In this document: one piece after another, positions 7,376-63,564 of the stretch
How the letters are laid out: each line of letters starts with the position of its first letter
Numbering within the stretch: the first letter of the stretch is position 1
The notes under the pieces: generated by a model
The model's database searches: none
Told to the model about the DNA's origin: nothing
What the model saw: the letters and a program-made list of their open reading frames with translations, nothing else
Program-made: the position numbers and the translations under genes
Assembly (NCBI GenBank): GCA_903831595.1
Contig: CAIKXY010000013.1
Span: 6,793 to 70,792 of the forward strand
Direction of reading: 5' to 3'
Length of the DNA stretch: 64,000 nt
Source of the DNA: an uncultured bacterium
GTDB taxonomy: Bacteria; Patescibacteriota; Minisyncoccia; Phycocordibacterales; GWA1-40-21

Positions 7376-9133
7376 TTATTTTATAAAAATTTTCCAAAGA
7401 TTGTTTGTTTCAATATACCAATTATTAATATCAAGAAATCTTTCGAATGGTAATGTTACAGTATCTATTGTAAATCCTTGGATTTTTGCTGGTGTTATGT
7501 AAATGAATTCTGGTGAGTATAAAAATACTGCTGGAGTGTCTTTTTGAATTTCGTCAGCAAATAATTTGTATTTTGTTATTCTTGCGGAAGTATCAAGGGT
7601 CGTTCTTGCATCTTCCAGTAGTTTATCAACTTTTGCATTGGTATACATTGCAATATTTAGACCAGGGTCATTTCTTTGAGATGAATGCCAAAAGGCAAAG
7701 AAGTCCATATCTCTACCAATAACTTCACCAAAAAGAAGTGCCTCAAATTTTCTTGGTCTAATAATGTTTTGTTGTAAATCACCAAAATCAAATTGATTTA
7801 CATCAACTTTTGCACCGACTTTTTCCCAAGCGCTTTTTATGAGTTGTGCTGCCTTCACAAGATCATCACTATTTAATGTCGAAATTGTAAATGAAAGTTG
7901 AACTATTTTTGTTTTACTAATTTTTTTAGTCATAATACCAGTACTTGTACTTTTTACCCAGCCAGCTTTTGTTAGGAGTCCAATTGCTCCATCTATATTG
8001 TTGTCGACAATATTATTATTTGAATTGTCTATAAGGCCTGCGGGTATTGGACCATAAAGTGGACTACCATAGCCTGATAAAACGTTATTTACAATTGCAT
8101 ATCTATCCACTGCCATATTTAAAGCTTGCCTAACTTCTTTATACGTTAATGCTTCTGATTGATTTTGATTAAAAAATACCGCGAAAACTCTTGGTAGGGG
8201 AGAAACGTTAATTTTTGCACCACTATCTTTATTTATACTGACAATTTTTTCTGGTGAAATTGAATTTATTGATTCAACTTCACGTTTATTATATGCATCA
8301 ATCAGACTAGCTTCGTCTTTATAAAAATTAATAATAAGTTGTTCCACAAATGGTTTGCTAAAAACATAACCATCAAAAGCATTTAATTCGTAATATGTTG
8401 GAATAAGCAAACTATTTTTTTGCAAGGTTTCCATTTTTGTAATTTTATATGGTCCAGAACCAACGGGGTCAACATTGTATTGGCTTAAAGGAAATTGATC
8501 TGATGTCAAATCATCCCATAGATGTTTTGGTAGTATACCGACAGTAAGATTGCCCAAGAAAGGTGAATATGGTTTTTTAAGAATAAATTTGATAGTTTTA
8601 TCATCAACTTTTTCAACTTTTACATCATAAAATCCCGGTCTCTTTGGACTTTTAATTGTGCTATCCTCAATTTTATTTATTGTAAATTCAACATCATCTG
8701 TTGTAACCTTTGTTCCATCATGAAAATAAATGTCATCACGAAGTGTAAAAGTATAGACTAAACCATCATTTGAAACGTCATAGCTTTTAGCCAAATCATT
8801 AATTATAGAATTGTCTTTCCCAAATTTTAATAACCCAGAGTATACAAGTTCGGTCAAATCATGGTCTACATCTGAAACCGCAAGTACGGGATTAATAAAT
8901 CTTGGGGTACCAATAATACCTTCTTTCAAATATCCGCCATTTGTTGGTACTTTTACAGAGACTAAATTATTAACTTTATTTAATATTACTAGACCTGAGA
9001 CTACTAATATGGTACTTAAGGTATAAAATAACAATTTTTCAGATATACTGAATTTTTTTGTCATATCTGAGAGATTTTCAAAAAATCTAATCTCCCATTT
9101 TTTATTGAGAATTTTTTTAATCTTTTCTTTCAC
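7376..9133 (-). CDS. ABC transporter substrate-binding protein, family 5 (peptide/oligopeptide type)
   Basis: 585 aa, N-terminal TM anchor, large solute-binding fold typical of OppA/DppA-like SBPs. Confidence 0.65.
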   Translation of the reverse strand: MKEKIKKILNKKWEIRFFENLSDMTKKFSISEKLLFYTLSTILVVSGLVILNKVNNLVSVKVPTNGGYLKEGIIGTPRFINPVLAVSDVDHDLTELVYSGLLKFGKDNSIINDLAKSYDVSNDGLVYTFTLRDDIYFHDGTKVTTDDVEFTINKIEDSTIKSPKRPGFYDVKVEKVDDKTIKFILKKPYSPFLGNLTVGILPKHLWDDLTSDQFPLSQYNVDPVGSGPYKITKMETLQKNSLLIPTYYELNAFDGYVFSKPFVEQLIINFYKDEASLIDAYNKREVESINSISPEKIVSINKDSGAKINVSPLPRVFAVFFNQNQSEALTYKEVRQALNMAVDRYAIVNNVLSGYGSPLYGPIPAGLIDNSNNNIVDNNIDGAIGLLTKAGWVKSTSTGIMTKKISKTKIVQLSFTISTLNSDDLVKAAQLIKSAWEKVGAKVDVNQFDFGDLQQNIIRPRKFEALLFGEVIGRDMDFFAFWHSSQRNDPGLNIAMYTNAKVDKLLEDARTTLDTSARITKYKLFADEIQKDTPAVFLYSPEFIYITPAKIQGFTIDTVTLPFERFLDINNWYIETNNLWKIFIK

Positions 9134-12220: not shown

Positions 12221-13249
12221 TTGATTGTTATAAAAATTGATTTCATGATAAAATCAAATTATATGAATAAAGATTCAATAATAGTTTCTAATCTTACAAA
12301 AAAATTCTCTTTTCAAGTAAAAAATGCAAATTCAAACTGGCTAAAAAATATTTTTTTCCCAGGCAAAAAAGAAATTGTTGCTGTAAACAATATTTCTTTT
12401 TCAGTAAGAGCTGGTGAAAGAATAGCCTTTATAGGACCCAACGGCGCTGGAAAGTCCACGACAATTAAAATGCTTACTGGTATTTTGTTTCCAACTTCTG
12501 GAAAAATAAATATACTAGGTTTGGATCCAACGAATGATAGAAAAAAACTCGCTTATCAGATAGGAACAGTTTTCGGACAGCGCTCGCAACTTTTTCCAAA
12601 TCTTCCACTTACAGATTCACTAGAATTTTTTGGTGTTATGTATGATTTATCTGATGATGATATAAAAAAGAGAATTGCTGAACTTATTAAATTATTTGAT
12701 TTAGGTTCTTTTATTGAGCAGCCCGTTCGTAAATTATCACTTGGTCAAAGGATGAGGGCAGAAGTAGCCGCATCTCTTATTCACAAGCCAAAAATAATAT
12801 TGCTTGATGAGCCTACAATTGGTCTTGATGTTGTAGCAAAAAAATCATTACGTGATTTGTTGCTAAAGATAAATAAAGAAGAAAATACAACAATATTTTT
12901 GACTTCACACGACGTTGGCGATGTTGAATTTTTATGTGAAAGAACAATTGTTATTAACCACGGAGAGATTATTAAAGATTTGCCAACAGAAGAATTATCA
13001 AAAACTTTCGTTAGTGAAAAGTACATTGATTTAATTCCAGAAAAAATATTTACAGTTTTTCCAGATTTACCAGCGGGGATAAGATATTCTCTTAAAGATA
13101 AAGATAAAATCACTGTTATTGTTGACGTAAAAATAATTGATGTTCAAGAATCATTGAGACAATTACTTAGCACTTTTAAAGTTGAAGATATTGATGTCTA
13201 TAATGTTGATTTAGAGACAGTTATTAGAAATATTTATGAAAGGAATTAG
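12221..13249 (+). CDS. ABC transporter ATP-binding protein (ABC-2 type)
   Basis: Walker A GPNGAGKST, signature LSLGQRMR, Walker B ILLDEPTIGLD. Confidence 0.8.
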   Translation: MIVIKIDFMIKSNYMNKDSIIVSNLTKKFSFQVKNANSNWLKNIFFPGKKEIVAVNNISFSVRAGERIAFIGPNGAGKSTTIKMLTGILFPTSGKINILGLDPTNDRKKLAYQIGTVFGQRSQLFPNLPLTDSLEFFGVMYDLSDDDIKKRIAELIKLFDLGSFIEQPVRKLSLGQRMRAEVAASLIHKPKIILLDEPTIGLDVVAKKSLRDLLLKINKEENTTIFLTSHDVGDVEFLCERTIVINHGEIIKDLPTEELSKTFVSEKYIDLIPEKIFTVFPDLPAGIRYSLKDKDKITVIVDVKIIDVQESLRQLLSTFKVEDIDVYNVDLETVIRNIYERN

Positions 13250-14036
13250 GCTATCAAAAAAAATAGTTGCCACTCTTGTAAAAGATCAAGTAAATTATCC
13301 AAGTAGACTTATTATTGACACATTTGGCCTAATTGCTCGTTGCGGGATATTATTAATTTTATATTGGTATATTTTTAAAATAAATGGCGGTGTTCTTAAT
13401 GGTACAACTTTTATTTTTACAGCATGGAGTATTTTTTTCTATTTTTCATTTTCAGTACTGCGTTTGAGAGATATATCAAGATTAATTATGCAAGATATTC
13501 AATCTGGTAATATTGAAGTTTTGTTTAGTAAGCCTATGTCATACCTTTTTTATCGTATTTGGTGGCAGGTTGGCCTTGGCGTTTATTCTTTTGTAGTAAT
13601 TAATTTTTTTGCAACTATTATTTTAATATTAATGCTTGGTATACCAAGCACAATGACAATCGGTATTTTTATTCCGACTTACATATTGACTTTTATTTTT
13701 TCGGCGGTTCTTTCTTTGCTTTTATATACCGTTGTTGGTTTATTGTCATTTTGGATTGATGATATAAATCCGATATATTGGATCGTTGATAAAGCAGTTA
13801 TGATTTTGGGTGGCTCGTATCTTCCAATCGCACTTTTTCCAGTATTGATGTACAAAATTGCATTATATAGTCCATTTGGCGCAACATTATTTGTTACACA
13901 CACAGTATCAGAATCTTGGAAGACAAATTGGTATCAGCTCGTTGGTATTCAGTTTATTTGGATAGTTATATTTGTCATACTTACGTTTATTATGTTTAAA
14001 AAAGCAAAACAAAGAGTATCGGTTAATGGGGGATAA
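13236..14036 (+). CDS. ABC-2 family transporter permease
   Basis: 266 aa polytopic membrane protein directly after the ATPase gene. Confidence 0.5.
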   Translation: MKGIRLSKKIVATLVKDQVNYPSRLIIDTFGLIARCGILLILYWYIFKINGGVLNGTTFIFTAWSIFFYFSFSVLRLRDISRLIMQDIQSGNIEVLFSKPMSYLFYRIWWQVGLGVYSFVVINFFATIILILMLGIPSTMTIGIFIPTYILTFIFSAVLSLLLYTVVGLLSFWIDDINPIYWIVDKAVMILGGSYLPIALFPVLMYKIALYSPFGATLFVTHTVSESWKTNWYQLVGIQFIWIVIFVILTFIMFKKAKQRVSVNGG

Positions 14037-14841
14037 TTATATGAGCATAAAAAATGAAATAAAATTTGCGGTTTACGCAATAAAGAAAAATATCGAAAGT
14101 AGTGCTGAATTAAGGACTAGTTTCTTGATGAATGTTTTAGGAATGATGATAAATAACGTAGCTTTTATATTGCTTTGGATGTTTTTTGCTAAATCTGCTG
14201 GGCCTATTGGTGGTTGGACACCAATGGATATTATTGGAATGCAGGGCTTTCTTGCTATTAGTTATGGAATAGTACTGTCTGCTGGAAATGGAATACGTAA
14301 AGTTGCGGAGTATACTGCATCAGGAGCATTAGATAGGTTTATGTTGTCTCCCAAAAATCTATTAACAAGAATTGCCACATCCAGTATGAATGTTTCCGCA
14401 ATTGGAGATTTATTTTTTGGGATCGTCTGTATGACAATATATTCAATAGCTATTCATGTAAGTTTAATTCAGGTTTTTCTTATTTTTGCATTATTAATTA
14501 TTTCTATGGTTTCTTTTTTTTCAATAATAATTATTATATATTCAACAAGTTTTTTCTTTATAGATGCGAACAATGTCACGACTGGAATTTATGAATTGTA
14601 TTTTACACCGGCGCTTTTTCACGGTGGGGCATTTCAAGGAATTATGAGATTTGTTTTTACGTTTGTAGTTCCAACATTACTTATTGCTTCAATACCAGTT
14701 GAAATACTAAAAAATATTTCTTTAGATAAGCTTTTAATGATTTTTATTTTAACTATAGTGTGGTTATTGGTTTCGATTTTTATTTTTAATAAAGCTATCA
14801 GACGATATGAAAGTTCAAACCTCATGACTTTTGGTAATTAA
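13972..14841 (+). CDS. ABC-2 family transporter permease (second permease)
   Basis: 289 aa polytopic membrane protein in the same apparent operon. Confidence 0.5.
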   Translation: MSYLRLLCLKKQNKEYRLMGDNYMSIKNEIKFAVYAIKKNIESSAELRTSFLMNVLGMMINNVAFILLWMFFAKSAGPIGGWTPMDIIGMQGFLAISYGIVLSAGNGIRKVAEYTASGALDRFMLSPKNLLTRIATSSMNVSAIGDLFFGIVCMTIYSIAIHVSLIQVFLIFALLIISMVSFFSIIIIIYSTSFFFIDANNVTTGIYELYFTPALFHGGAFQGIMRFVFTFVVPTLLIASIPVEILKNISLDKLLMIFILTIVWLLVSIFIFNKAIRRYESSNLMTFGN

Positions 14842-48326: not shown

Positions 48327-49019
48327 TTAATAATTAAAATAATCTCCCGGGTTAATACCTATTTCATTAAAAGGGAAGAGTCTGATATACGATTTCCCGA
48401 TTATGTTTGCTTTTGGTAATACTCCCCAAAGTCTTGAATCGGAGCTGTTGTGTCTGTTGTCTCCCATTACGAAATACTCGTTATCTTTCAATGTTATTTT
48501 TTCTTTAATCTCTGTAAATTGTGAAGGCACGTTTTTATTTATGTTTATGTATGGTTCATTCAAAACTTTTCCATCGGGATTTTCTTTATTGAAAATTTTT
48601 ACTTCATCGCCGTTTATCTCAACAGTTTCTCCAGGAAGTCCGATGATTCTTTTTATATAATAAACAGTTTGTGTCGTTGAAACTTTTTGTAATTCAAGCG
48701 CTGAAGCGGGTGCTTTCAAAACTATCACCTCACCTCTTTTTGGTAATTGAAATCTGTATGAAATCTCATCAATAATTAAATAATTTCCATCTTGATATGT
48801 ATTGTCCATTGATGCGCCAGATACGACATAGGGTTGAGCGATAAAAGCTCGTATAGGCAACACAATCAAAAGTGATATAACAATAATATAAGCTGTTTCT
48901 TTAATGAACGATTTGGCTTGTTGCATCTTATTAGGAATTATTTCACTATTATTATCTTCTTTATTTGTGTCGTTCATTTCAAAAATATGGCTAAAAATAT
49001 GACTAAAATTACTATTCAA
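48327..49019 (-). CDS. lepB: Signal peptidase I
   Basis: Catalytic Ser box VVSGASMDNTY (SM.P/N), GDNRHNSSDSRLWG (S26 box E), and an N-terminal TM. Confidence 0.8.
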   Translation of the reverse strand: MNSNFSHIFSHIFEMNDTNKEDNNSEIIPNKMQQAKSFIKETAYIIVISLLIVLPIRAFIAQPYVVSGASMDNTYQDGNYLIIDEISYRFQLPKRGEVIVLKAPASALELQKVSTTQTVYYIKRIIGLPGETVEINGDEVKIFNKENPDGKVLNEPYININKNVPSQFTEIKEKITLKDNEYFVMGDNRHNSSDSRLWGVLPKANIIGKSYIRLFPFNEIGINPGDYFNY

Positions 49020-57007: not shown

Positions 57008-57301
57008 ATGATAGGCAGCAAAAAAGAAATGAACAAGTTTTTTCTTTTTAAGTTGGCAAAGGTAAGGAGGAAATTTTTTAACTTACGTGCGCACTTAAAA
57101 AAGAGCGTTTCCGATTCAGTTTTAAGAAGAACTTTAATTAAAGAAACAAAGGAAATTGAAAGCAACATGCAGGATTTGGTTGAAAAGCAAAAAAAGGATT
57201 TTAAGACCATGTTTTGTGATATGGAGACCCAAGCAAAAATAAAAGAACAGTGCATACGTGCGAAGATTTTAGCTGAAATAGCTGAAAGACAGAATAAGTA
57301 A
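57008..57301 (+). CDS. Hypothetical basic/coiled-coil protein (97 aa)
   Basis: ORF followed by a terminator hairpin gggcggtcagcgatgaccgcc at 57306-57330. Confidence 0.35.
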   Translation: MIGSKKEMNKFFLFKLAKVRRKFFNLRAHLKKSVSDSVLRRTLIKETKEIESNMQDLVEKQKKDFKTMFCDMETQAKIKEQCIRAKILAEIAERQNK

Positions 57302-57388
57302 ATTAAGGGCGGTCAGCGATGACCGCCTTTTCTATATTTATCCACTAGCAAGATTTCTATTGTGGGGTTATAATATAGACATAAAAAA

Positions 57389-57916
57389 ATGTTTTCAGAC
57401 CCGCAAAAAAATATTGAACAATTTGGTTTAGGAAAAGGTAATTATGTCGCCGATTTTGGTACGGGCTCTGGTTTTTATGCATTTGCTGCCGCTGAGATAA
57501 TTGGTGTTTCTGGAAAAGTGTACGCTGTAGATGTACAAAAAGACTTGTTAGCCAGGATAAAAAGTGAAGCTATTAATGTTAGACATTTAAATAATATTGA
57601 GATTATTTGGGCTGACTTAGAACATGTAGGAGGTACAAAACTCCGAGAAAATTCAATGGATGCAGTCATTGTAGCAAACACTTTTTTCCAATTAGAAAAT
57701 AAGGATAATGCATGTCGGGAAGTTAAAAGAATCTTAAAACCAAATGGTAGAGTGCTTTTTGTTGATTGGTCTAGTTCTTTTGGTGGCATTGGTCCTCAGC
57801 CGGAACATGTTTTTTCAGAGAATCAAGCTAAAGATCTTTTTAATAAACACGGCCTTGTAATAGACAGATTAATTAGTGCGGGGGCTCAGCACTATGGTAT
57901 AATTTTTAGAAAATAA
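57389..57916 (+). CDS. Class I SAM-dependent methyltransferase
   Basis: Motif I VADFGTGSGFYAFAAA, motif II VDVQKD, and LKPNGRVLFVDW. Confidence 0.6.
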   Translation: MFSDPQKNIEQFGLGKGNYVADFGTGSGFYAFAAAEIIGVSGKVYAVDVQKDLLARIKSEAINVRHLNNIEIIWADLEHVGGTKLRENSMDAVIVANTFFQLENKDNACREVKRILKPNGRVLFVDWSSSFGGIGPQPEHVFSENQAKDLFNKHGLVIDRLISAGAQHYGIIFRK

Positions 57917-57918
57917 TA

Positions 57919-59220
57919 ATGAATCCAACATCAAGCAAATTTAAATTAATCCTTATGATTGTTTTCGGTTTTTTTATTGTTTTTGGTATGATAGCTTTTT
58001 CAAGTTACAAAGCCACCAAACAGGTAAACACAACAACAGAAATTAAGGTGTGGGGTACGATTGATAAGACGGTTTTTGACTCTTTTATAAAAAAATATCA
58101 GGAAGATAACAGTATTAAATTTAATTTGACATATACTTATAAAAGTATAGATACAATTGATAATTTACTTGTCGAGGCTATTGCTACTGGAAATGGTCCA
58201 GATGCTATTTTAGTTCCGCAATCTTTAGAAAAAAGGTATTTGGATAAGGTTTTGTTAATTCCATTTTCAAACATCTCAGAAAGAACTTTTCGTGACACTT
58301 TTGTACAAGAATCAGACATCTATGTTTACCCAAATGGCATTTTTGCACTCCCCCTATTTGTTGATCCAATGTTGATGTATTGGAATAAAGATATGTTTGC
58401 GACAGCTGGTATAGCATTACCGCCAACAAAATGGAGTGAATTTCCACAATTAGCAAGTAAATTATCGCAGAGTGATAGTAATGCAAATATAATTTCAAGT
58501 GCTGCCTCCCTAGGTGAATATAGAAACGTTGATAATGCAAAAGCTCTACTTAGTACACTAATATTGCAGGCCGGTAGCCCAATAGTTTCGTTTACCAATA
58601 ACTCATTTAATGCAGAATTAAAATTCCAATCATCCAATGACGTTTTAGTACCCACAGTTTCAGCTTTGCAATTTTTTACTGATTATTCTAACCCCAAAAA
58701 ATCAATATATTCATGGAATAGATCCTTACCTTCATCGAAACAGTCATTTATAAGTGAAAATCTTGCTACCTTTTTTGGTTTTGCTTCAGAATATCAAGAC
58801 ATAAAAGATAAAAACCCAAATTTAAACTTTGATGTTGCAATTATGCCGCAGGCATTGGGACAAAAAACAAGTACAACATTTGGAAATATTTATGGTTTCT
58901 CTATATTAAAAAGCTCAAAAAACCCTACACTTACATTCAGTTTATTATCCTCCATTACAGATTCTTCAGCAGCGTCAGTTTTTCTTGGTATGACAAACTA
59001 TGCTCCAGCTAGAAAAGATCTTATCTCTATTGGTTCAACTGACCCAATTAAAACAATATTTTATAATTCGGCATTAATATCAAAAGCTTGGATAGATCCA
59101 GATTCAAAAAAAACAGATAAAATATTTCAAGACATGGTTGAAAATATCACTACGGGGCAATTAGATGTATCTGGTTCAGTGTCGAAGGCGAATGGAGAAT
59201 TAGATGTTTTATTGTTATAA
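57919..59220 (+). CDS. Extracellular solute-binding protein (ABC-type, family 1-like), N-terminally membrane-anchored
   Basis: 433 aa with an N-terminal TM and a periplasmic-binding-protein-like fold composition (WGTIDKTVFDSFIKKYQ...). Confidence 0.5.
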   Translation: MNPTSSKFKLILMIVFGFFIVFGMIAFSSYKATKQVNTTTEIKVWGTIDKTVFDSFIKKYQEDNSIKFNLTYTYKSIDTIDNLLVEAIATGNGPDAILVPQSLEKRYLDKVLLIPFSNISERTFRDTFVQESDIYVYPNGIFALPLFVDPMLMYWNKDMFATAGIALPPTKWSEFPQLASKLSQSDSNANIISSAASLGEYRNVDNAKALLSTLILQAGSPIVSFTNNSFNAELKFQSSNDVLVPTVSALQFFTDYSNPKKSIYSWNRSLPSSKQSFISENLATFFGFASEYQDIKDKNPNLNFDVAIMPQALGQKTSTTFGNIYGFSILKSSKNPTLTFSLLSSITDSSAASVFLGMTNYAPARKDLISIGSTDPIKTIFYNSALISKAWIDPDSKKTDKIFQDMVENITTGQLDVSGSVSKANGELDVLLL

Positions 59221-59242: not shown

Positions 59243-59707
59243 ATGAAATATAAAAAAATTATAATATCTTGTTTATTGTTATTAACGTTTTTACCATCAT
59301 TCGTCATTGCTGCTGGTTTAATTCCTTGTGGAAATGTTACTGTTGAAGGTGGAAAAGTGAGCAACGACCAAAACACTGATGCACACATGTGTACATTTGC
59401 TGATGTTATGACTTTTGTGAATAAGACGATAACATGGTTTATTGATGCTTCAGTATTTATTGCTGCTATTACATTTACTGTAGCTGGAGTAAAAATATTA
59501 TTTAATCCTTCTAGTCCAGAAAAAATTAAGGAAGGATGGAGTATGTTCAGGAAAACTGTAATTGGTTTGCTTATCGTTCTAGGTGCGTGGTTGGTGATTC
59601 ATACGCTTATCATAACTTTTGTAGACCAACCTGAAAATCCCGGTGGTGCGCTACAATTTTTTACAAAAACAAATCAAACAACAAATACAGATTCGACACA
59701 ACAATAA
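59243..59707 (+). CDS. Small secreted/membrane protein, member 1 of a tandem paralogous family (signal peptide, Cys pair, C-terminal TM)
   Basis: The signal peptide ends at VIAAG. Two Cys (CGNVTVEGG...AHMCTF). The C-terminal motif KEGWSMFRKTVIGLLIVLGAWLV is shared with the next four ORFs. Confidence 0.5.
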   Translation: MKYKKIIISCLLLLTFLPSFVIAAGLIPCGNVTVEGGKVSNDQNTDAHMCTFADVMTFVNKTITWFIDASVFIAAITFTVAGVKILFNPSSPEKIKEGWSMFRKTVIGLLIVLGAWLVIHTLIITFVDQPENPGGALQFFTKTNQTTNTDSTQQ

Positions 59708-59731
59708 TTTATTAATAATTTTTATAAAACA

Positions 59732-60088
59732 ATGAAAGCAAACATAATTAAAATATCGGCAACAGTTTCAGTGGCATGTTTGGTATTACTTCCATTGATT
59801 GTCTTTGCTGAGACAGCACAGACAATCAATAATCCTTTAGGTAATCAATACAATACCTTGTCGGCTTTTATACCGTACATATTAAGTTATGTTGTTAAAA
59901 TTGCTGGAGTTATTGCCATAGGTGCATTTATGTACTCCGGTTTTCTTTTTGTTAAATCACGAGGTAATCCAGAGGGAATTAAGACAGCAAAAACTGTTTT
60001 TATGAATACATGTATAGGGGTTGCTGTTCTTCTAGGTGCTCAATTAATTGCAAATATTATTCATGGGACAATAACTGGTTTAAAATAA
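59732..60088 (+). CDS. Small secreted/membrane protein, family member 2
   Basis: Signal peptide (VFAETAQ), a central TM, and the C-terminal motif KTAKTVFMNTCIGVAVLLGAQLIANI. Confidence 0.5.
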   Translation: MKANIIKISATVSVACLVLLPLIVFAETAQTINNPLGNQYNTLSAFIPYILSYVVKIAGVIAIGAFMYSGFLFVKSRGNPEGIKTAKTVFMNTCIGVAVLLGAQLIANIIHGTITGLK

Positions 60089-60091
60089 TTT

Positions 60092-60553
60092 ATGAAAAAA
60101 ATATTAAAAATTTCTTTTATATCATTATTTTTATTCATGACTATATATGGCATTGGATTTGCAATAGGTACTATTGAGGAGCCAAATGCAAATCTTAATC
60201 CATCTGGTTCGGTCCCCGTAGAGCAAACATTACATCAGGTTGTTTGTAATAATATTAGTTTTGTTAAGAGTTTCAGTGATCTTGCTTACACCGTTGTATA
60301 TTGTTTCTTTAATACGGCCGTTGAGATTATTTTAGCCTTATCTGTTGTGGTTTTTCTTTGGGGTATTTTTAGGTTTTTGTCTTCTGAAGAAAAAAAGGAG
60401 GAAGGTAAACAATTTATGTTTTGGAGTATTATTGGTATTTTTGTAATGGTGTCTCTTTGGGGCTTGGTTAGCATACTTAAGAGTACTATTGCAGTAAACT
60501 ATGATACATTGAATAACATTCCCGCAATTAAAGTGCCTGATATATTTAAATAA
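60092..60553 (+). CDS. Small secreted/membrane protein, family member 3
   Basis: Motif EEGKQFMFWSIIGIFVMVSLWGLVSIL. Confidence 0.5.
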   Translation: MKKILKISFISLFLFMTIYGIGFAIGTIEEPNANLNPSGSVPVEQTLHQVVCNNISFVKSFSDLAYTVVYCFFNTAVEIILALSVVVFLWGIFRFLSSEEKKEEGKQFMFWSIIGIFVMVSLWGLVSILKSTIAVNYDTLNNIPAIKVPDIFK

Positions 60554-60686
60554 CTAATAATATATTAATACTCATTGCATATGTTGATTGTGAGCTTGCT
60601 TGTTCATTAATATGGTTATATAATTGTATATGTAATTTTTATTGGTCGTTTCTAGTTTGATTATTAATTTATTAATATAATAATAT

Positions 60687-61058
60687 ATGAAAAGAAAAAT
60701 TTTAGCTTTTGTTGTAGCAGGTTTGGTACCATCAGTGTCATTTGCAGCTGTAGCCATTACAACTTCAGTAAGCGGTGGTGTTTATGGTTTGTTAAAGTGG
60801 TTTGGTGATATGCTTAGTTTGGTTGTTCCGCTAATTATTTCTTTAGCGGTTGTTTATTTTATTTGGCAAGTATTTCGATATGCTATTGCGGGTAATGAAG
60901 AGGACAAAGCAAAAGCAAAAACACACATGATATGGGGTATTGTAGGAATCTTCGTAATGGTTTCTGTCTGGGGATTGGTAGGAATACTCACAAGCACTTT
61001 TGGTACTGCCGGTCAAAGTGCAATGACTGGACCATCAATAAATGTTATAGGACAATAA
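60687..61058 (+). CDS. Small secreted/membrane protein, family member 4
   Basis: The signal peptide ends at SFAAV. Motif KAKTHMIWGIVGIFVMVSVWGLVGIL. Confidence 0.5.
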   Translation: MKRKILAFVVAGLVPSVSFAAVAITTSVSGGVYGLLKWFGDMLSLVVPLIISLAVVYFIWQVFRYAIAGNEEDKAKAKTHMIWGIVGIFVMVSVWGLVGILTSTFGTAGQSAMTGPSINVIGQ

Positions 61059-61064
61059 TATAAA

Positions 61065-61352
61065 ATGGATTTTTTTGTTCAAACAGTTTACGCTGCAGAT
61101 TTTCAAAGTAGTTCATTTGATTCACTATTTGGGAAGATCATAAACAATATTGTTAACCCAGGGATAACATTATTATTGGGTTTAGCAGTTGTATTTTTTG
61201 TTTGGGGATTGTTTGAATTTATTTCAAATTCTGCGCAATCAGAAAAGAGAGATCAAGGGTACCAACATATGTTGTGGGGAGTAATAGGAGTCTTTATTAT
61301 GTTAGCAGCAAAAGGGATAATAAATATTATTTTGGCTACCGTTGGAGCATAG
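61065..61352 (+). CDS. Small secreted/membrane protein, family member 5
   Basis: Motif RDQGYQHMLWGVIGVFIMLAAKGIINI. Followed by a hairpin/T-run at 61376-61400. Confidence 0.5.
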   Translation: MDFFVQTVYAADFQSSSFDSLFGKIINNIVNPGITLLLGLAVVFFVWGLFEFISNSAQSEKRDQGYQHMLWGVIGVFIMLAAKGIINIILATVGA

Positions 61353-61454
61353 AAAAATTTAATCTTAATTAATAAAAAACACCTATTTATAATAGGTGTT
61401 TTTTATTTTTTTATATCAGTTTGCTTAATAGTAAATTGTATTGTACAATTGCTT

Positions 61455-61795
61455 TTGCCTTTATATTGGATAACCGCTTTAGCTGTAAAGTTGGAGAGGA
61501 AAGTCCGAACACTACCTCGATGTTAAAGTTGAGGAGAAGGGTAGCGGGTAACACCCGTCCATAGCAATATGAGAGGTGCGAACAGTGACGCCGATGCCGA
61601 AAGGCTAGGATTCCTTCGGGAATAATCTCATTGAAAAGTGAGGGTGCAACGGCAAAATTCCTTACCTTAGTGCAAGGCCGTGCCTACCTCGTGTAGGAGC
61701 GCCGCTTGAGCCAATCAGTAATGTTTGGCCCAGATAGATGGTTATCTCGTTGTAGTAATACAGCGAACAGAATTCGGCTTATAGGTATAGAGGTT
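61455..61795 (+). ncRNA. rnpB: RNase P RNA (bacterial type A)
   Basis: Universally conserved P4 strands ggagaggaaagtccgaacac and acagaattcggcttata, plus a P15-like ggtaacacc and internal conserved loops. The 5' and 3' ends are approximate. A terminator follows at 61800-61835. Confidence 0.8.
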
Positions 61796-61799
61796 ATGG

Positions 61800-61887: not shown

Positions 61888-63564
61888 ATGGTCAAAAGAT
61901 TTTTTAGTGTAATTAACAAAGAAGTTAGTGGTTTGCATCAAGCAGCATATCTTTTGGCTTTTTTTGCGATATCATCTCAATTACTTGCCCTTGTGAGAGA
62001 CAGACTTTTAGCATCACATTTTGGGGCAGGCCACACTCTCGATCTTTATTATGCAGCTTTTAGAATTCCTGATTTTATTTTTATTACAGTTGGTTCTATG
62101 GTTTCTGTTTCAGTACTTATTCCGTTTCTTGTTGAAAAAATGAAAGCTGGTGCGGAAGAGGGAAGAAGATTTATTGGTAATATTTTTACTTTTTTCTTTT
62201 TATTAATTATTGTAATAAGTATAATTGCATTTTTCTTTATTCCAACAATAAATAAATTACTTTTTACAGGCTTCAGTACTGCAGATTTGAGTATTGTAAA
62301 CAACATGACAAGAATTTTGCTTTTGTCACCTATTTTTCTTGGTATTTCAAACATTTTTGGTACTCTAACTCAAACATACAAACGCTTTTTAATCTATTCT
62401 TTAAGCCCTATTTTATACAATCTAGGCATTATTTTAGGCATCATTTTACTTTACCCAATGTTTGGCCTAGTTGGCTTGGTCTTGGGGGTTGTGGTAGGAG
62501 CATTTTTACATTTCGCAATCCAGATCCCATTTATAGTTGAGAATAATTTTTTTCCAAAACCAAAATTAAATTTTGATTTTGCCGAAATTAGAAAAGTTTT
62601 GCTCGTTTCTATTCCAAGAACTTTTACTTTGGGTTCAGATAATATTTCTGTAATCTTTTTACTTTCTTTTGCTTCATCAATGGTTGCAGGCTCTATTGCA
62701 GTTTTTAATCTTTCATACAATATGCAGTCTGTTTTGCTCTCTGTTATCGGCGTCAGCTATTCTCTCGCTGCGTTTCCCATACTTGTGAGATTTTTTGCCG
62801 ATGGGGAAAGAGGTAAATTTTTAGATCAAATTATTCTTTCAGCACAGCATATTATTTTCTGGTCGCTACCATGTGTGATTTTGTTTATTACACTTCGAGC
62901 GCAAATTGTCAGAACGATTTTAGGCGCGGGAGTTTTTAATTGGACACAAACCCGTCTTACTGCTGCAGCGCTCGCTGTTTTTGTTATTTCAGTGATTTTT
63001 CAAAACCTTACTCTTTTGTTTGTCAGGGCATATTATGCGACTGGAAACACAAAAAAACCATTTATAGCCAAATTTATTAACGCCACTTCGACAGTAGCAC
63101 TTGGTTTTGGTTTTATGATTTTGTATAAAGTCTATCCACCATTTAAGGATTTGCTTGAAAGTTTATTGAGAATTAAAGATGTTCCCGGAACTATTATTTT
63201 AGCTTTACCCTTAGGCTGGTCTGTTGGGGAAGTATTAAATAGTTTAGTTTTATGGTTTGTTTTTGAAAAAGATTTCAAAGGTTTTTCAAAGCCAGTATTA
63301 AAAACAGCACTTCAGGTTTTGCTATCATCAATTTCAATTGGCGTGGTAAGCTATTTTTCTTTGAATCTTTTTGCTATTATTTTTGACCTTGATACCACTA
63401 TTGGAATATTTATGCAGGGCTTTTTATCAGGGTTACTCGGTATTATGGCTGGTATAATTGTTCTAATTGTATTAAAAAACAAAGAAATTATTGATGTTCA
63501 CAATACTTTAAAGAGCAAAATATCAAAAATTAAAATATTTGCACCAACACAAACTGGTCTATAA
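61888..63564 (+). CDS. murJ: Lipid II flippase MurJ (MviN family)
   Basis: 558 aa, 14-TM MOP-superfamily layout. N-terminus AAYLLAFFAISSQLLALVRDRLLASHFGAG and conserved Arg/Asp in TM1-2. Confidence 0.8.
   Translation: MVKRFFSVINKEVSGLHQAAYLLAFFAISSQLLALVRDRLLASHFGAGHTLDLYYAAFRIPDFIFITVGSMVSVSVLIPFLVEKMKAGAEEGRRFIGNIFTFFFLLIIVISIIAFFFIPTINKLLFTGFSTADLSIVNNMTRILLLSPIFLGISNIFGTLTQTYKRFLIYSLSPILYNLGIILGIILLYPMFGLVGLVLGVVVGAFLHFAIQIPFIVENNFFPKPKLNFDFAEIRKVLLVSIPRTFTLGSDNISVIFLLSFASSMVAGSIAVFNLSYNMQSVLLSVIGVSYSLAAFPILVRFFADGERGKFLDQIILSAQHIIFWSLPCVILFITLRAQIVRTILGAGVFNWTQTRLTAAALAVFVISVIFQNLTLLFVRAYYATGNTKKPFIAKFINATSTVALGFGFMILYKVYPPFKDLLESLLRIKDVPGTIILALPLGWSVGEVLNSLVLWFVFEKDFKGFSKPVLKTALQVLLSSISIGVVSYFSLNLFAIIFDLDTTIGIFMQGFLSGLLGIMAGIIVLIVLKNKEIIDVHNTLKSKISKIKIFAPTQTGL

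Follow-up and report, generated by a model that had tools for sequence, protein, structure and literature searches.

A conserved array of five T4SS_pilin-family genes beside methyltransferase and solute-binding protein genes in an uncultured member of the Patescibacteria

Background

A large part of bacterial diversity falls within the Patescibacteria, whose members live attached to other microbes. Members of the phylum with tandem arrays of 2 to 11 divergent VirB2-like pilin genes have been described (Quinonero-Coronel et al. 2025, PMC12102498), an array being defined there as at least two such genes, in tandem or with one non-pilin gene between them, whose paralogues are highly divergent; paralogue identity averages 25% and reaches at most 54%, and pilin genes lie near virB4 in 1135 of 1948 assemblies. 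The discussion in that study favours versatility in host adaptation for these arrays. In the only species tested, the cultivated Saccharibacterium S. epibionticum, the T4SS and its unusual series of pilins proved essential (Wang et al. 2023, PMC10633639). The function of the Patescibacteria T4SS has been described as completely unknown (PMC11665869).

TrbC/VirB2 systems (PF04956; T-pilin, RP4 TrbC, pKM101 TraM) have one major pilin, a small protein with two hydrophobic helices and a short charged loop. The Mbov_0395/MMCAP2_0565 family (NF045849, the pilin-like conjugal transfer protein of Mycoplasma ICEs) is encoded by a single-copy gene on a mobile element and belongs to monoderm MPF-FATA-type conjugation, which fits the origin that has been published for the Patescibacteria T4SS. 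In Bartonella and Anaplasma, pilin genes have multiplied in tandem in a host-dependent organism, and a role in antigenic variation is attributed to the VirB2 paralogues.

Here we describe a five-gene array on a stretch of 64,000 nucleotides from an uncultured patescibacterium (contig CAIKXY010000013.1; the whole stretch analysed is hereafter the window). It resembles the published Patescibacteria arrays in its PF18895 (T4SS_pilin) matches, phylum, tandem same-strand arrangement, gene number (five, within the range of 2 to 11), divergence and monoderm cell. Whereas the pilin genes of S. epibionticum lie inside the T4SS cluster and those of many Microgenomatia a few genes from virB4, this array has no virB4 within 10 kb and is located between gyrA and rnpB/murJ; unlike the published arrays it is coupled to a methyltransferase gene and a solute-binding protein (SBP) gene; and where host-adaptation variability was discussed for those arrays, this one has position-specific orthologues under purifying selection. 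Its products are small, as TrbC/VirB2 pilins are, and have in common with them a pair of hydrophobic helices, a short charged loop and, in four of the five, a predicted leader, but there are five different subunits in place of one major pilin, and, unlike in the Gram-negative systems, the cell is monoderm, the genes are not part of a virB operon and neither a cyclase nor an acetylase partner was identified. In contrast to the Mycoplasma gene, the five genes are chromosomal, and in contrast to the Bartonella and Anaplasma paralogues, their order, class and sequence are conserved. The array is a well-supported but ordinary case of the known Patescibacteria pilin arrays and nothing categorically new; what is new are the position-specific classes, the purifying selection, the methyltransferase-SBP module, a promoter-like element before the fourth gene, and fused and ectodomain-bearing versions in relatives. 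Our preferred reading, to which we assign a probability of roughly 0.6, is that the array encodes five different VirB2-like subunits that together form a fixed set within the Patescibacteria T4SS.

Gene content and paralogy

Five plus-strand ORFs occupy positions 59243-61352, with products of 154, 118, 153, 123 and 95 amino acids and intergenic gaps of 3-133 nt. In the independent annotation of this sequence by NCBI (GCA_903954215.1, L081) the same five genes appear, each flagged as PF18895; it differs solely at member 3, where a later start gives 138 amino acids. The run of consecutive same-strand genes reported in the first-pass annotation was thus recovered at its exact coordinates, as were the neighbours named there: an SBP gene directly upstream, and rnpB (61458-61797; 112 bits) and murJ (61888-63564; PF03023, E 5e-63) downstream.

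The proposal that the five genes are paralogues also holds, with matches of all five to one Pfam model and pairwise BLASTP E-values of 6e-20 (members 3 and 4), 4e-19 (members 3 and 5) and 8e-16 (members 4 and 5); members 1 and 2 are more remote from the other paralogues (18-28% identity; E 3e-7 to 0.04). Judged by these alignments, the five genes are homologous, and their paralogy lies far above chance. With gaps of the size given above and paralogue identities of 18-37%, the locus is an array as defined in PMC12102498. The C-terminal motif that had been attributed to every member is more restricted: in its strict form (h-M-h-W-G-I-h-G-I-F-V-M-V-S-h-W-G-L-V, in brief WG..G.F.M.S.WGLV) it occurs in members 3-5 only, and members 1 and 2 have in common with the rest only a helix-loop-helix layout and a handful of invariant positions, one of them a Gly in helix 2. 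Variation among the array pilins is greatest in their N-regions and C-tails.

Family assignment and fold

PF18895 matches all five products (E 1.5e-5 to 2.1e-12), with scores that exceed the curated gathering cut-off (26.6 bits) for all but member 2, and the two hydrophobic helices with a short polar loop, seen in hydropathy profiles, segment charges and the AF2 model of member 4, fit the core build of this family. The homologues of the array pilins are all from Patescibacteria (Paceibacteria/Nomurabacteria-type MAGs). NF045849 is the best NCBIfam match for every window pilin, at 39.1 bits for member 4, 35.2 for member 5, 26.3 for member 2, 22.9 for member 3 and 19.9 for member 1; all five fall short of its equivalog cut-off of 40 bits, and the setting is one of chromosomal housekeeping genes, not of an ICE. 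All 49 family members tested match this model at E <= 0.01 (best E 9.8e-17), and a few family members also match the pLS20_p028 and TraQ models.

The TrbC model PF04956 scores 22.9 bits with member 2 (E 1e-4, near-full model), 19.0 with member 1 and 15.7 with member 5, and no window protein reaches its gathering score of 27.9 bits; as far as such profiles can tell, this indicates a superfamily-level relationship to TrbC/VirB2 and not membership. At E <= 0.01, TrbC matches 48 of 52 orthologues in the member-2 class (best E 9.6e-10) and 16 of 43 in the member-1 class. By profile score, the member-2 class is the most TrbC/VirB2-like of the five. Comparison by hhalign with 25 VirB2 proteins of the Agrobacterium/Rhizobium type gave no significant match (E 0.23 for the member-4-type family and 0.11 for the member-2 class), a comparison that is weak because the VirB2 profile is narrow (at least 56% identity), its alignment having been drawn from the closest 120 proteins listed. 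The best sequence-profile match in the PDB is the pKM101 pilin TraM (E 0.16). Foldseek with the AF2 model of member 4 found nothing in the PDB at E <= 0.001: unrelated helical hairpins headed the list, with an archaeal conjugative pilin no higher than rank 9 (probability 0.14). Foldseek is uninformative for a bare helical hairpin. The VirB2/TrbC-type resemblance put forward at the outset is borne out by the PF18895, TrbC and NF045849 matches together with the published arrays in the phylum.

Other families had been suggested for the same proteins. A reading of them as class II bacteriocin-like or holin-like secreted peptides, or as type IV pilins (T4P), draws on small size, leader and hydrophobic helices only, and we consider it very improbable indeed. 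Neither the window proteins nor 144 orthologues match a class II bacteriocin or holin family in Pfam or NCBIfam, the five sequences contain no double-glycine leader, no immunity gene or C39-ABC exporter adjoins them, and, unlike bacteriocin loci, the five genes are deeply conserved among housekeeping genes. The earlier remark that immunity and ABC-export genes are missing from the window is correct for the surroundings of the array; the window as a whole does encode an ABC ATPase and an ABC-2 permease, at 12221-14841, 45 kb away. For T4P there is likewise no family match and, in the five sequences, no class III leader of the G/FTLIE type (cleavage at the slash), and the two membrane helices without a globular domain do not match the T4P architecture of a single N-terminal helix plus a globular domain.

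Features of the individual pilins

Judged by eye and by hydropathy, members 1-4 begin with predicted leaders, each made up of a K/R-rich n-region, a hydrophobic core and an A-x-A-like site, and member 5 does not; the signal peptide or TM segment first ascribed to each product therefore stands for members 1-4 and falls for member 5, which has the two core helices only.

Member 1 (59243..59707, plus strand; 154 aa; PF18895 28.7 bits, above the cut-off) combines a predicted Sec-type leader (MKYKK...VIA/A) with two hydrophobic helices and a polar C-tail. Its previously noted Cys pair, C29 and C50 in the exposed N-region, is kept in 51 of 53 orthologues, and PF18895 matches 43 of 43 proteins of its class. 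Large N-terminal ectodomains belong to this class: in 14 relatives, 150-530 aa precede the pilin domain, Fn3-like in one of them (L020), an arrangement that suggests exposure of the N-end. Member 2 (59732..60088, plus strand; 118 aa; 25.4 bits, just under the cut-off) has a predicted leader (...VFA/E) and the conserved motifs I-x-N-P-L and GFLFV-x-ARGN; PF18895 matches 51 of 52 in its class.

Member 3 (60092..60553, plus strand; 153 aa, or 138 aa from the NCBI start; 40.8 bits) carries a predicted leader (GFA/I) followed by two helices with the WG..G.F.M.S.WGLV motif, and is 37% identical to member 4; in 21 relatives a fused protein with two pilin domains stands at its position. Member 4 (60687..61058, plus strand; 123 aa; 47.4 bits), with a predicted leader (...SFA/A), two helices and a K/E-rich loop, is the best family match and the most conserved member of the array. 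Its AF2 model (pLDDT 78) has helices at residues 3-26, 28-67 and 71-104, corresponding to a leader helix and a two-helix hairpin. Member 5 (61065..61352, plus strand; 95 aa; 40.8 bits) starts with a 24-residue acidic N-tail (net charge -2) in place of a leader, followed by the two core helices; all 53 orthologues in its class have just two hydrophobic segments.

Conservation and selection

The five genes form position-specific ortholog classes that are collinear in about 80 related genomes, each class having its own conserved motifs and a degree of conservation about that of the neighbouring SBP. Against a close relative (L001), dN/dS of the five pilins is 0.012-0.099; member 4 is 100% identical in amino-acid sequence at a dS of 0.89 (dN/dS 0.012). 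No recent duplications were found among the array paralogues, and a search between them for DNA repeats that would reflect recombination or gene conversion returned only short AT-rich chance matches. To judge from these comparisons, the five classes are ancient, singly conserved and not now diversifying. The first-pass annotation had described a diversified family and proposed a check for diversifying selection: the paralogues did diverge, anciently, but their classes are conserved at present, and purifying selection in all five means that the array is not a diversifying cassette.

These results bear on an alternative in which the genes encode interchangeable major-pilin variants that serve to change antigens or host range, a role proposed for the Bartonella and Anaplasma VirB2 paralogues and suggested for Patescibacteria arrays. 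High divergence (18-37% identity), concentrated variability in the N-regions and C-tails, and the preference for host-adaptation versatility in PMC12102498 would all suit it; however, every position has its own ortholog class in the same order across those genomes, every member is under purifying selection, with member 4 the extreme case, neither recent duplications nor recombination repeats are seen, and the builds differ from class to class (leaderless, Cys pair, TrbC-like), which argues for non-redundant roles. Interchangeability is accordingly quite unlikely in our estimation, and the comparative results constrain the build of the apparatus to five fixed subunit classes, not variable copies.

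The methyltransferase and solute-binding protein module

Directly upstream of the array lies a gene (57919..59220, plus strand) for a membrane-anchored extracellular SBP homologue of 433 aa (SBP_bac_8 E 7.5e-19; SBP_bac_1 E 3e-16) with an N-terminal TM helix and no adjoining ABC permease. It occupies position -1 from the array in 68 of 71 loci, has a dN/dS of 0.054 and remains beside the array in loci where both flanks have been rearranged; its homologues among the matches listed are all Patescibacteria-type, down to 47% identity, which reaches no deeper in the clade than the array loci do. It is preceded by a gene (57389..57916, plus strand) for a cytoplasmic class I SAM-dependent methyltransferase of 175 aa (Pfam Methyltransf_11, E 1.6e-15), found at position -2 in 60 of 67 loci (dN/dS 0.064) and kept with the SBP and the array even where gyrA is displaced. 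A terminator-like hairpin with an 11-bp stem including 6 GC pairs (57305..57330, plus strand) ends the gyrA/small-ORF unit and is the proposed 5' boundary of the module; another, with a 17-bp stem followed by a T-run (61371..61407, plus strand), lies just before rnpB and is the proposed 3' boundary. The tight spacing and the bracketing hairpins suggest one operon. Methyltransferase, SBP and pilins are a conserved module, bracketed by terminator-like hairpins and away from virB4, and we found no discussion of such conserved partners in the T4SS literature consulted.

The only long spacer within the array precedes the member-4-class gene (median 106 nt versus 6-12 nt at the other junctions). Comparative alignment of these spacers revealed a putative sigma-70-like promoter element (60596..60624, plus strand), composed of a -35 box TTGCTT (60596-60601), a 17-nt spacer and a -10 box TATAAT (60619-60624), with a conserved GGTCG box 3' of it at 60644-60648; across 15 spacers that were aligned, TTG and TATAAT hardly vary. 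A generic promoter scan showed no enrichment (27 sites versus 23.6 expected from shuffles) and missed this element because its -35 box matches at just 3 of 6 positions.

No gene for VirB4, VirD4 or VirB6 was found in the window, which covers 59 kb upstream of the array, or in about 8 kb past its end, in line with what had been reported initially for VirB4 and VirD4; nor did any of the three turn up within 10 kb on either side of the array in 80 related loci, and no relaxase, integrase or coupling protein gene was found near the array. Such surroundings would suit a second alternative, in which methyltransferase, SBP and pilins make up a self-contained membrane device apart from the T4SS, for example a receptor or uptake complex whose two-helix proteins are the membrane component for the anchored SBP. 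The constancy of the SBP gene through rearrangement of both flanks, the suggestion of a single operon, an SBP with no adjoining ABC permease, the distance from virB4 in every relative and the weak similarity to classical VirB2 all speak for it. However, no case is known of an SBP that works with proteins as small as these. PF18895 genes adjoin virB4 in many other Patescibacteria and are essential together with the T4SS in S. epibionticum, and the similarity to pilin-like proteins of conjugation systems is consistent. On balance we hold a device separate from the T4SS to be unlikely.

A possible heteromeric pilus or conduit

If the array encodes five T4SS subunits, as we prefer to think, the Sec-type leaders of members 1-4 would be cut off by signal peptidase I (LepB is encoded in the window at 48327-49019, and SecG is encoded there as well), and member 5 would be inserted leaderless, with its short acidic N-tail translocated. 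In the membrane, both ends of each of the five pilins would then face outwards and its charged loop inwards. Such an N-out, loop-in, C-out layout is consistent with hydropathy and charge; four of the five members have acidic N-regions, and a net positive loop occurs in members 1 and 2 alone. A machine of the VirB4/TrsD/VirB3/VirB6 type, presumably encoded elsewhere in the genome, may draw on this membrane pool to form a heteromeric pilus or conduit, which could be used for host contact or exchange of material. We know of no pilus ever seen on these organisms.

Member 4, together with member 5, may supply the bulk of such a structure, and is the candidate major subunit because it is the most conserved member and has its own conserved promoter-like element; one class would thus be a likely major subunit with its own putative promoter. 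Member 1, with its Cys pair and the ectodomain fusions of its relatives, may be an exposed or adhesive minor subunit. The 21 fusions of two pilin domains are what would be expected from physically adjacent subunits, so that the fused versions hint at which subunits adjoin one another, and the ectodomain-bearing ones at which end is exposed. The SBP and the methyltransferase, presumably co-transcribed with the pilins, would be conserved accessories. A broader proposal is tentative and rather doubtful: that the T4SS-type pilins of Paceibacteria are not interchangeable variants but five subunits of different structure that evolve together (one lacks a leader, one has either a Cys pair or an adhesin ectodomain, one resembles TrbC and two are of the WGLV type) and form an obligatorily heteromeric filament or channel, expressed from a housekeeping locus with a dedicated SBP and methyltransferase and physically uncoupled from virB4. 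On this proposal, should the SBP truly work with the pilin structure, a T4SS-derived conduit that captures or imports host molecules, not one for export, would be indicated.

In the portion of Table S3 of PMC12102498 considered here, the PF18895-based calls are all virB4-proximal, and the present type of array may therefore be uncounted there; the comparative results also suggest that surveys anchored on virB4 neighbourhoods under-count the pilin arrays of Paceibacteria. Isolated T_virB2 hits far from virB4, such as gene 48 of GCA_000989355.1, do stand in that table and may be genes of the member-2 class. The genome that holds a further locus with the same array (L038) is listed as VirB4-positive in Table S1 of that study.

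Gene organization and membrane topology of the array

Five tandem ORFs lie on the + strand exactly where the first-pass annotation had placed them: member 1 (59243-59707, 154 aa), member 2 (59732-60088, 118 aa), member 3 (60092-60553, 153 aa), member 4 (60687-61058, 123 aa) and member 5 (61065-61352, 95 aa), with intergenic gaps of 24, 3, 133 and 6 nt. A separate NCBI call of identical sequence (GCA_903954215.1, contig CAJBML010000019.1) contains the same five genes, with a later start for member 3. This start is ambiguous: the long ORF of 153 aa begins MKKILK… and has a typical leader, and the NCBI start, 15 codons downstream (138 aa), loses the charged n-region. The array is preceded by gyrA, a small ORF, a methyltransferase gene (57389-57916) and a solute-binding protein (SBP) gene (57919-59220), and followed by rnpB (61458-61797; 112 bits) and murJ (61888-63564), the SBP gene, rnpB and murJ being located as annotated. 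Terminator-like hairpins bracket the seven genes from methyltransferase to member 5 on the 5' side (57305-57330) and the 3' side (61371-61407), and the AT-rich composition of the window (~32% G+C) is unbroken at the array. The small ORF (57008-57301, 97 aa), between gyrA and the first hairpin, is 40% identical to its counterpart in the close relative L001, versus 85-96% for the flanking genes; either this ORF evolves very fast or it is not a genuine gene.

Members 3, 4 and 5 share 31-37% mutual identity (BLASTP E 1e-16 to 6e-20); for members 1 and 2, identity to other members is only 18-28%. The helix motif that had been ascribed to all five (WG..G.F.M.S.WGLV) is common to members 3-5; all that members 1 and 2 have in common with them is the overall architecture and a handful of invariant positions, one of them a Gly in helix 2. 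Hydropathy analysis gives members 1-4 three hydrophobic segments, namely a leader (K/R-rich start, A-x-A-like end) and two core helices; member 5 has an acidic 24-residue N-tail and the two core helices only, so that the N-terminal signal peptide or TM segment claimed for every member appears to apply to the first four. For member 4, AlphaFold2 predicts a leader helix and, after it, two helices folded into a hairpin (residues 28-67 and 71-104), at a mean pLDDT of 78. The window also encodes signal peptidase I (48327-49019), SecG and a DsbD-like protein.

Family membership

All five proteins match PF18895 (Type IV secretion system pilin; cut-off 26.6 bits), at 28.7, 25.4, 40.8, 47.4 and 40.8 bits for members 1-5, respectively; matches to PF04956 (TrbC/VirB2) and to NCBIfam NF045849 (Mycoplasma-ICE 'pilin-like conjugal transfer protein') are weaker and sub-threshold. 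Queried against 5.8 billion proteins, member 4 retrieved 236 relatives; almost all of the matches listed carry PF18895, those named by organism are all Paceibacterota/Minisyncoccia, and three are called 'pilin' by NCBI. A genome scan found 574 related stretches, every one in Patescibacteria MAGs (Paceibacterota, Nomurabacteria, Parcubacteria and 'Saccharibacteria'-labelled). The TrbC model is matched independently by 48 of 52 member-2 and 16 of 43 member-1 orthologues (best E 9.6e-10); NF045849 is matched by all 49 member-4-type family members (best E 9.8e-17), a few of which also match the pLS20_p028 and TraQ models. The top match in a PDB profile search was the pKM101 pilin TraM (E 0.16); Foldseek was uninformative about a link to classical VirB2, and hhalign gave no significant similarity to a VirB2 alignment of Agrobacterium type, which was validated but narrow. 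From these sequence comparisons we conclude that the five proteins belong to PF18895 and not to PF04956 proper, and that they are superfamily-level kin of VirB2/TrbC and of small membrane components of monoderm conjugation systems, which supports the VirB2/TrbC-type reading first offered. It is highly improbable that they are bacteriocins, the other identity first offered, or holins or T4P pilins.

Five orthologue classes under purifying selection

Across 80 related loci the arrays typically comprise five genes (range 2-8, the shortest at contig ends) in a collinear order: member-1-like, member-2-like, one to three member-3/4-like, member-4-like and member-5-like, the commonest patterns being 12345 (21 loci), 12445 (15) and 124445 (9). 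Every position corresponds to a distinct ortholog class, recognizable by features of its own: G-L-V-P-C…C-x-F in class 1, where the Cys pair already noticed in member 1 is present in 51 of 53 orthologues; I-x-N-P-L and GFLFV-x-ARGN in class 2; and the lack of a leader, in 53 of 53, in class 5. Within a pilin class, median pairwise identity is 31-41%, close to the values for the neighbouring SBP (38%) and methyltransferase (47%); for GyrA it is 67%. The first-pass annotation proposed a diversified family, and interchangeable variants serving host or antigenic variation are one rival reading; between the window and L001 (83-94% DNA identity), however, dN/dS of the five genes is 0.012-0.099, indicating purifying selection as in neighbouring genes, the member 4 proteins are 100% identical at dS 0.89, and no DNA repeats linking the paralogues were found. 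Such variation is accordingly unlikely, and the members are ancient, non-redundant paralogues rather than a diversifying cassette.

Junctions within the array are short (medians 6-12 nt) except for the one before the member-4 class, whose spacer has a median of 106 nt. In the window this spacer spans 60554-60686, a length conserved across relatives, and contains a near-invariant promoter-like element, TTG…17 nt…TATAAT (60596-60601 and 60619-60624), followed by a conserved GGTCG box (60644-60648). The element is read as a putative internal promoter boosting members 4 and 5, perhaps with a 5'-UTR element; this would fit member 4 as the bulk subunit.

A conserved methyltransferase-SBP-pilin module

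The SBP gene lies directly 5' of the array in 68 of 71 loci and is itself preceded by the methyltransferase gene in 60 of 67, all on the same strand. The trio is intact where gyrA is displaced (L010, L021, L045 and L070) and where downstream genes differ; rnpB-murJ is confined to the sub-clade of the window, rnpB being confirmed in the related loci L007 and L010. In ~70 related genomes the cytoplasmic class I methyltransferase and TM-anchored orphan SBP (57389-59220) form a conserved unit with the pilins, and the neighbourhood lacks an ABC permease; candidate roles include pilin modification or ligand capture. A second orphan SBP (SBP_bac_5, 585 aa; 7376-9133) adjoins RNase J, and a few kb away an ABC ATPase and ABC-2 permease are encoded (12221-14841), so that ABC transport genes do occur in the window, contrary to what had been implied.

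As first noted, VirB4 and VirD4 are absent from the window, as is VirB6, other large ORFs reading as IF2, ClpB, LepA, ValRS, FtsZ and FtsA; none of the three occurs in ~8 kb past the window end (L33, MiaA, ParB, RelA/SpoT and TopA) or, in any relative, in the 10 kb on either side of the array. This absence, together with the near-constant SBP neighbour, would suit an SBP-linked membrane device independent of a T4SS, which is improbable, though slightly less so than host or antigenic variation. We favour, at a probability of about 0.6, a heteromeric T4SS pilus or conduit. Members 1-4 would be inserted by the Sec pathway and their leaders removed by LepB, and member 5 would insert leaderless via its acidic N-tail; a VirB4-type T4SS encoded elsewhere would extract and polymerise this membrane pool into a structure for host contact, with member 4 (and member 5) as putative major subunit, member 1 as exposed minor subunit, and the SBP and methyltransferase as accessories.

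The genes parB (L081:12511-13512 in the GCA_903954215.1 locus, ~3.5 kb past the window end), gyrA, rnpB and topA are all close to the array, which may be origin-proximal, as reported for Patescibacteria T4SS genes; the window contains no GC skew switch.

Relation to known Patescibacteria pilin arrays

Quinonero-Coronel et al. 2025 (PMC12102498) ran PF18895, PF04956 and CONJScan profiles on 3,035 Patescibacteria genomes, reporting VirB2-like pilins in 1,948 VirB4-containing assemblies, and a pilin series within the S. epibionticum T4SS cluster is essential (Wang et al. 2023, PMC10633639). The array of the window is therefore another example of a described kind. Its value lies in the details of its organization, which narrow the possible models of a machine that is essential yet has no explained function. 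In a 2025 review it is speculated that the T4SS and pilus act together as a conduit, either for signals or to take up material from the host; a 2024 perspective (PMC11665869) calls the T4SS role 'completely unknown'. Nomurabacteria RIFCSPHIGHO2_12_FULL_42_19, whose genome carries the related locus L038, is listed as VirB4-positive (PMC12102498). In the available portion of Table S3 of that study, PF18895-based calls are all virB4-proximal and Nomurabacteria genomes have only single 'T_virB2' matches, far from virB4; these entries suggest, and do not prove, that the array counts of that study omitted gyrA-linked arrays of this kind.

Fusions and extensions in relatives

At the member-3/4 position, 21 loci encode two complete T4SS_pilin domains in one ORF (L035:8871-9923, L038:9848-10627, L050:9073-9879 and 18 more). 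These are natural fusions of neighbouring pilin genes and would fit co-assembly of adjacent subunits. An extension of 150-530 residues separates leader and pilin domain in 14 proteins, most of them from the member-1 position (L020:7280-9133, L045:8268-9872, L023:7094-8488, L036:1857-3098 and others), and is Fn3-like in L020; such proteins resemble pilins equipped with their own adhesin-like ectodomains and would fit an exposed N-end. Upstream of the main array, some relatives carry one more T4SS_pilin gene on its own, lying between gyrA and the methyltransferase gene (L064:5075-5542 and L066:4808-5278).
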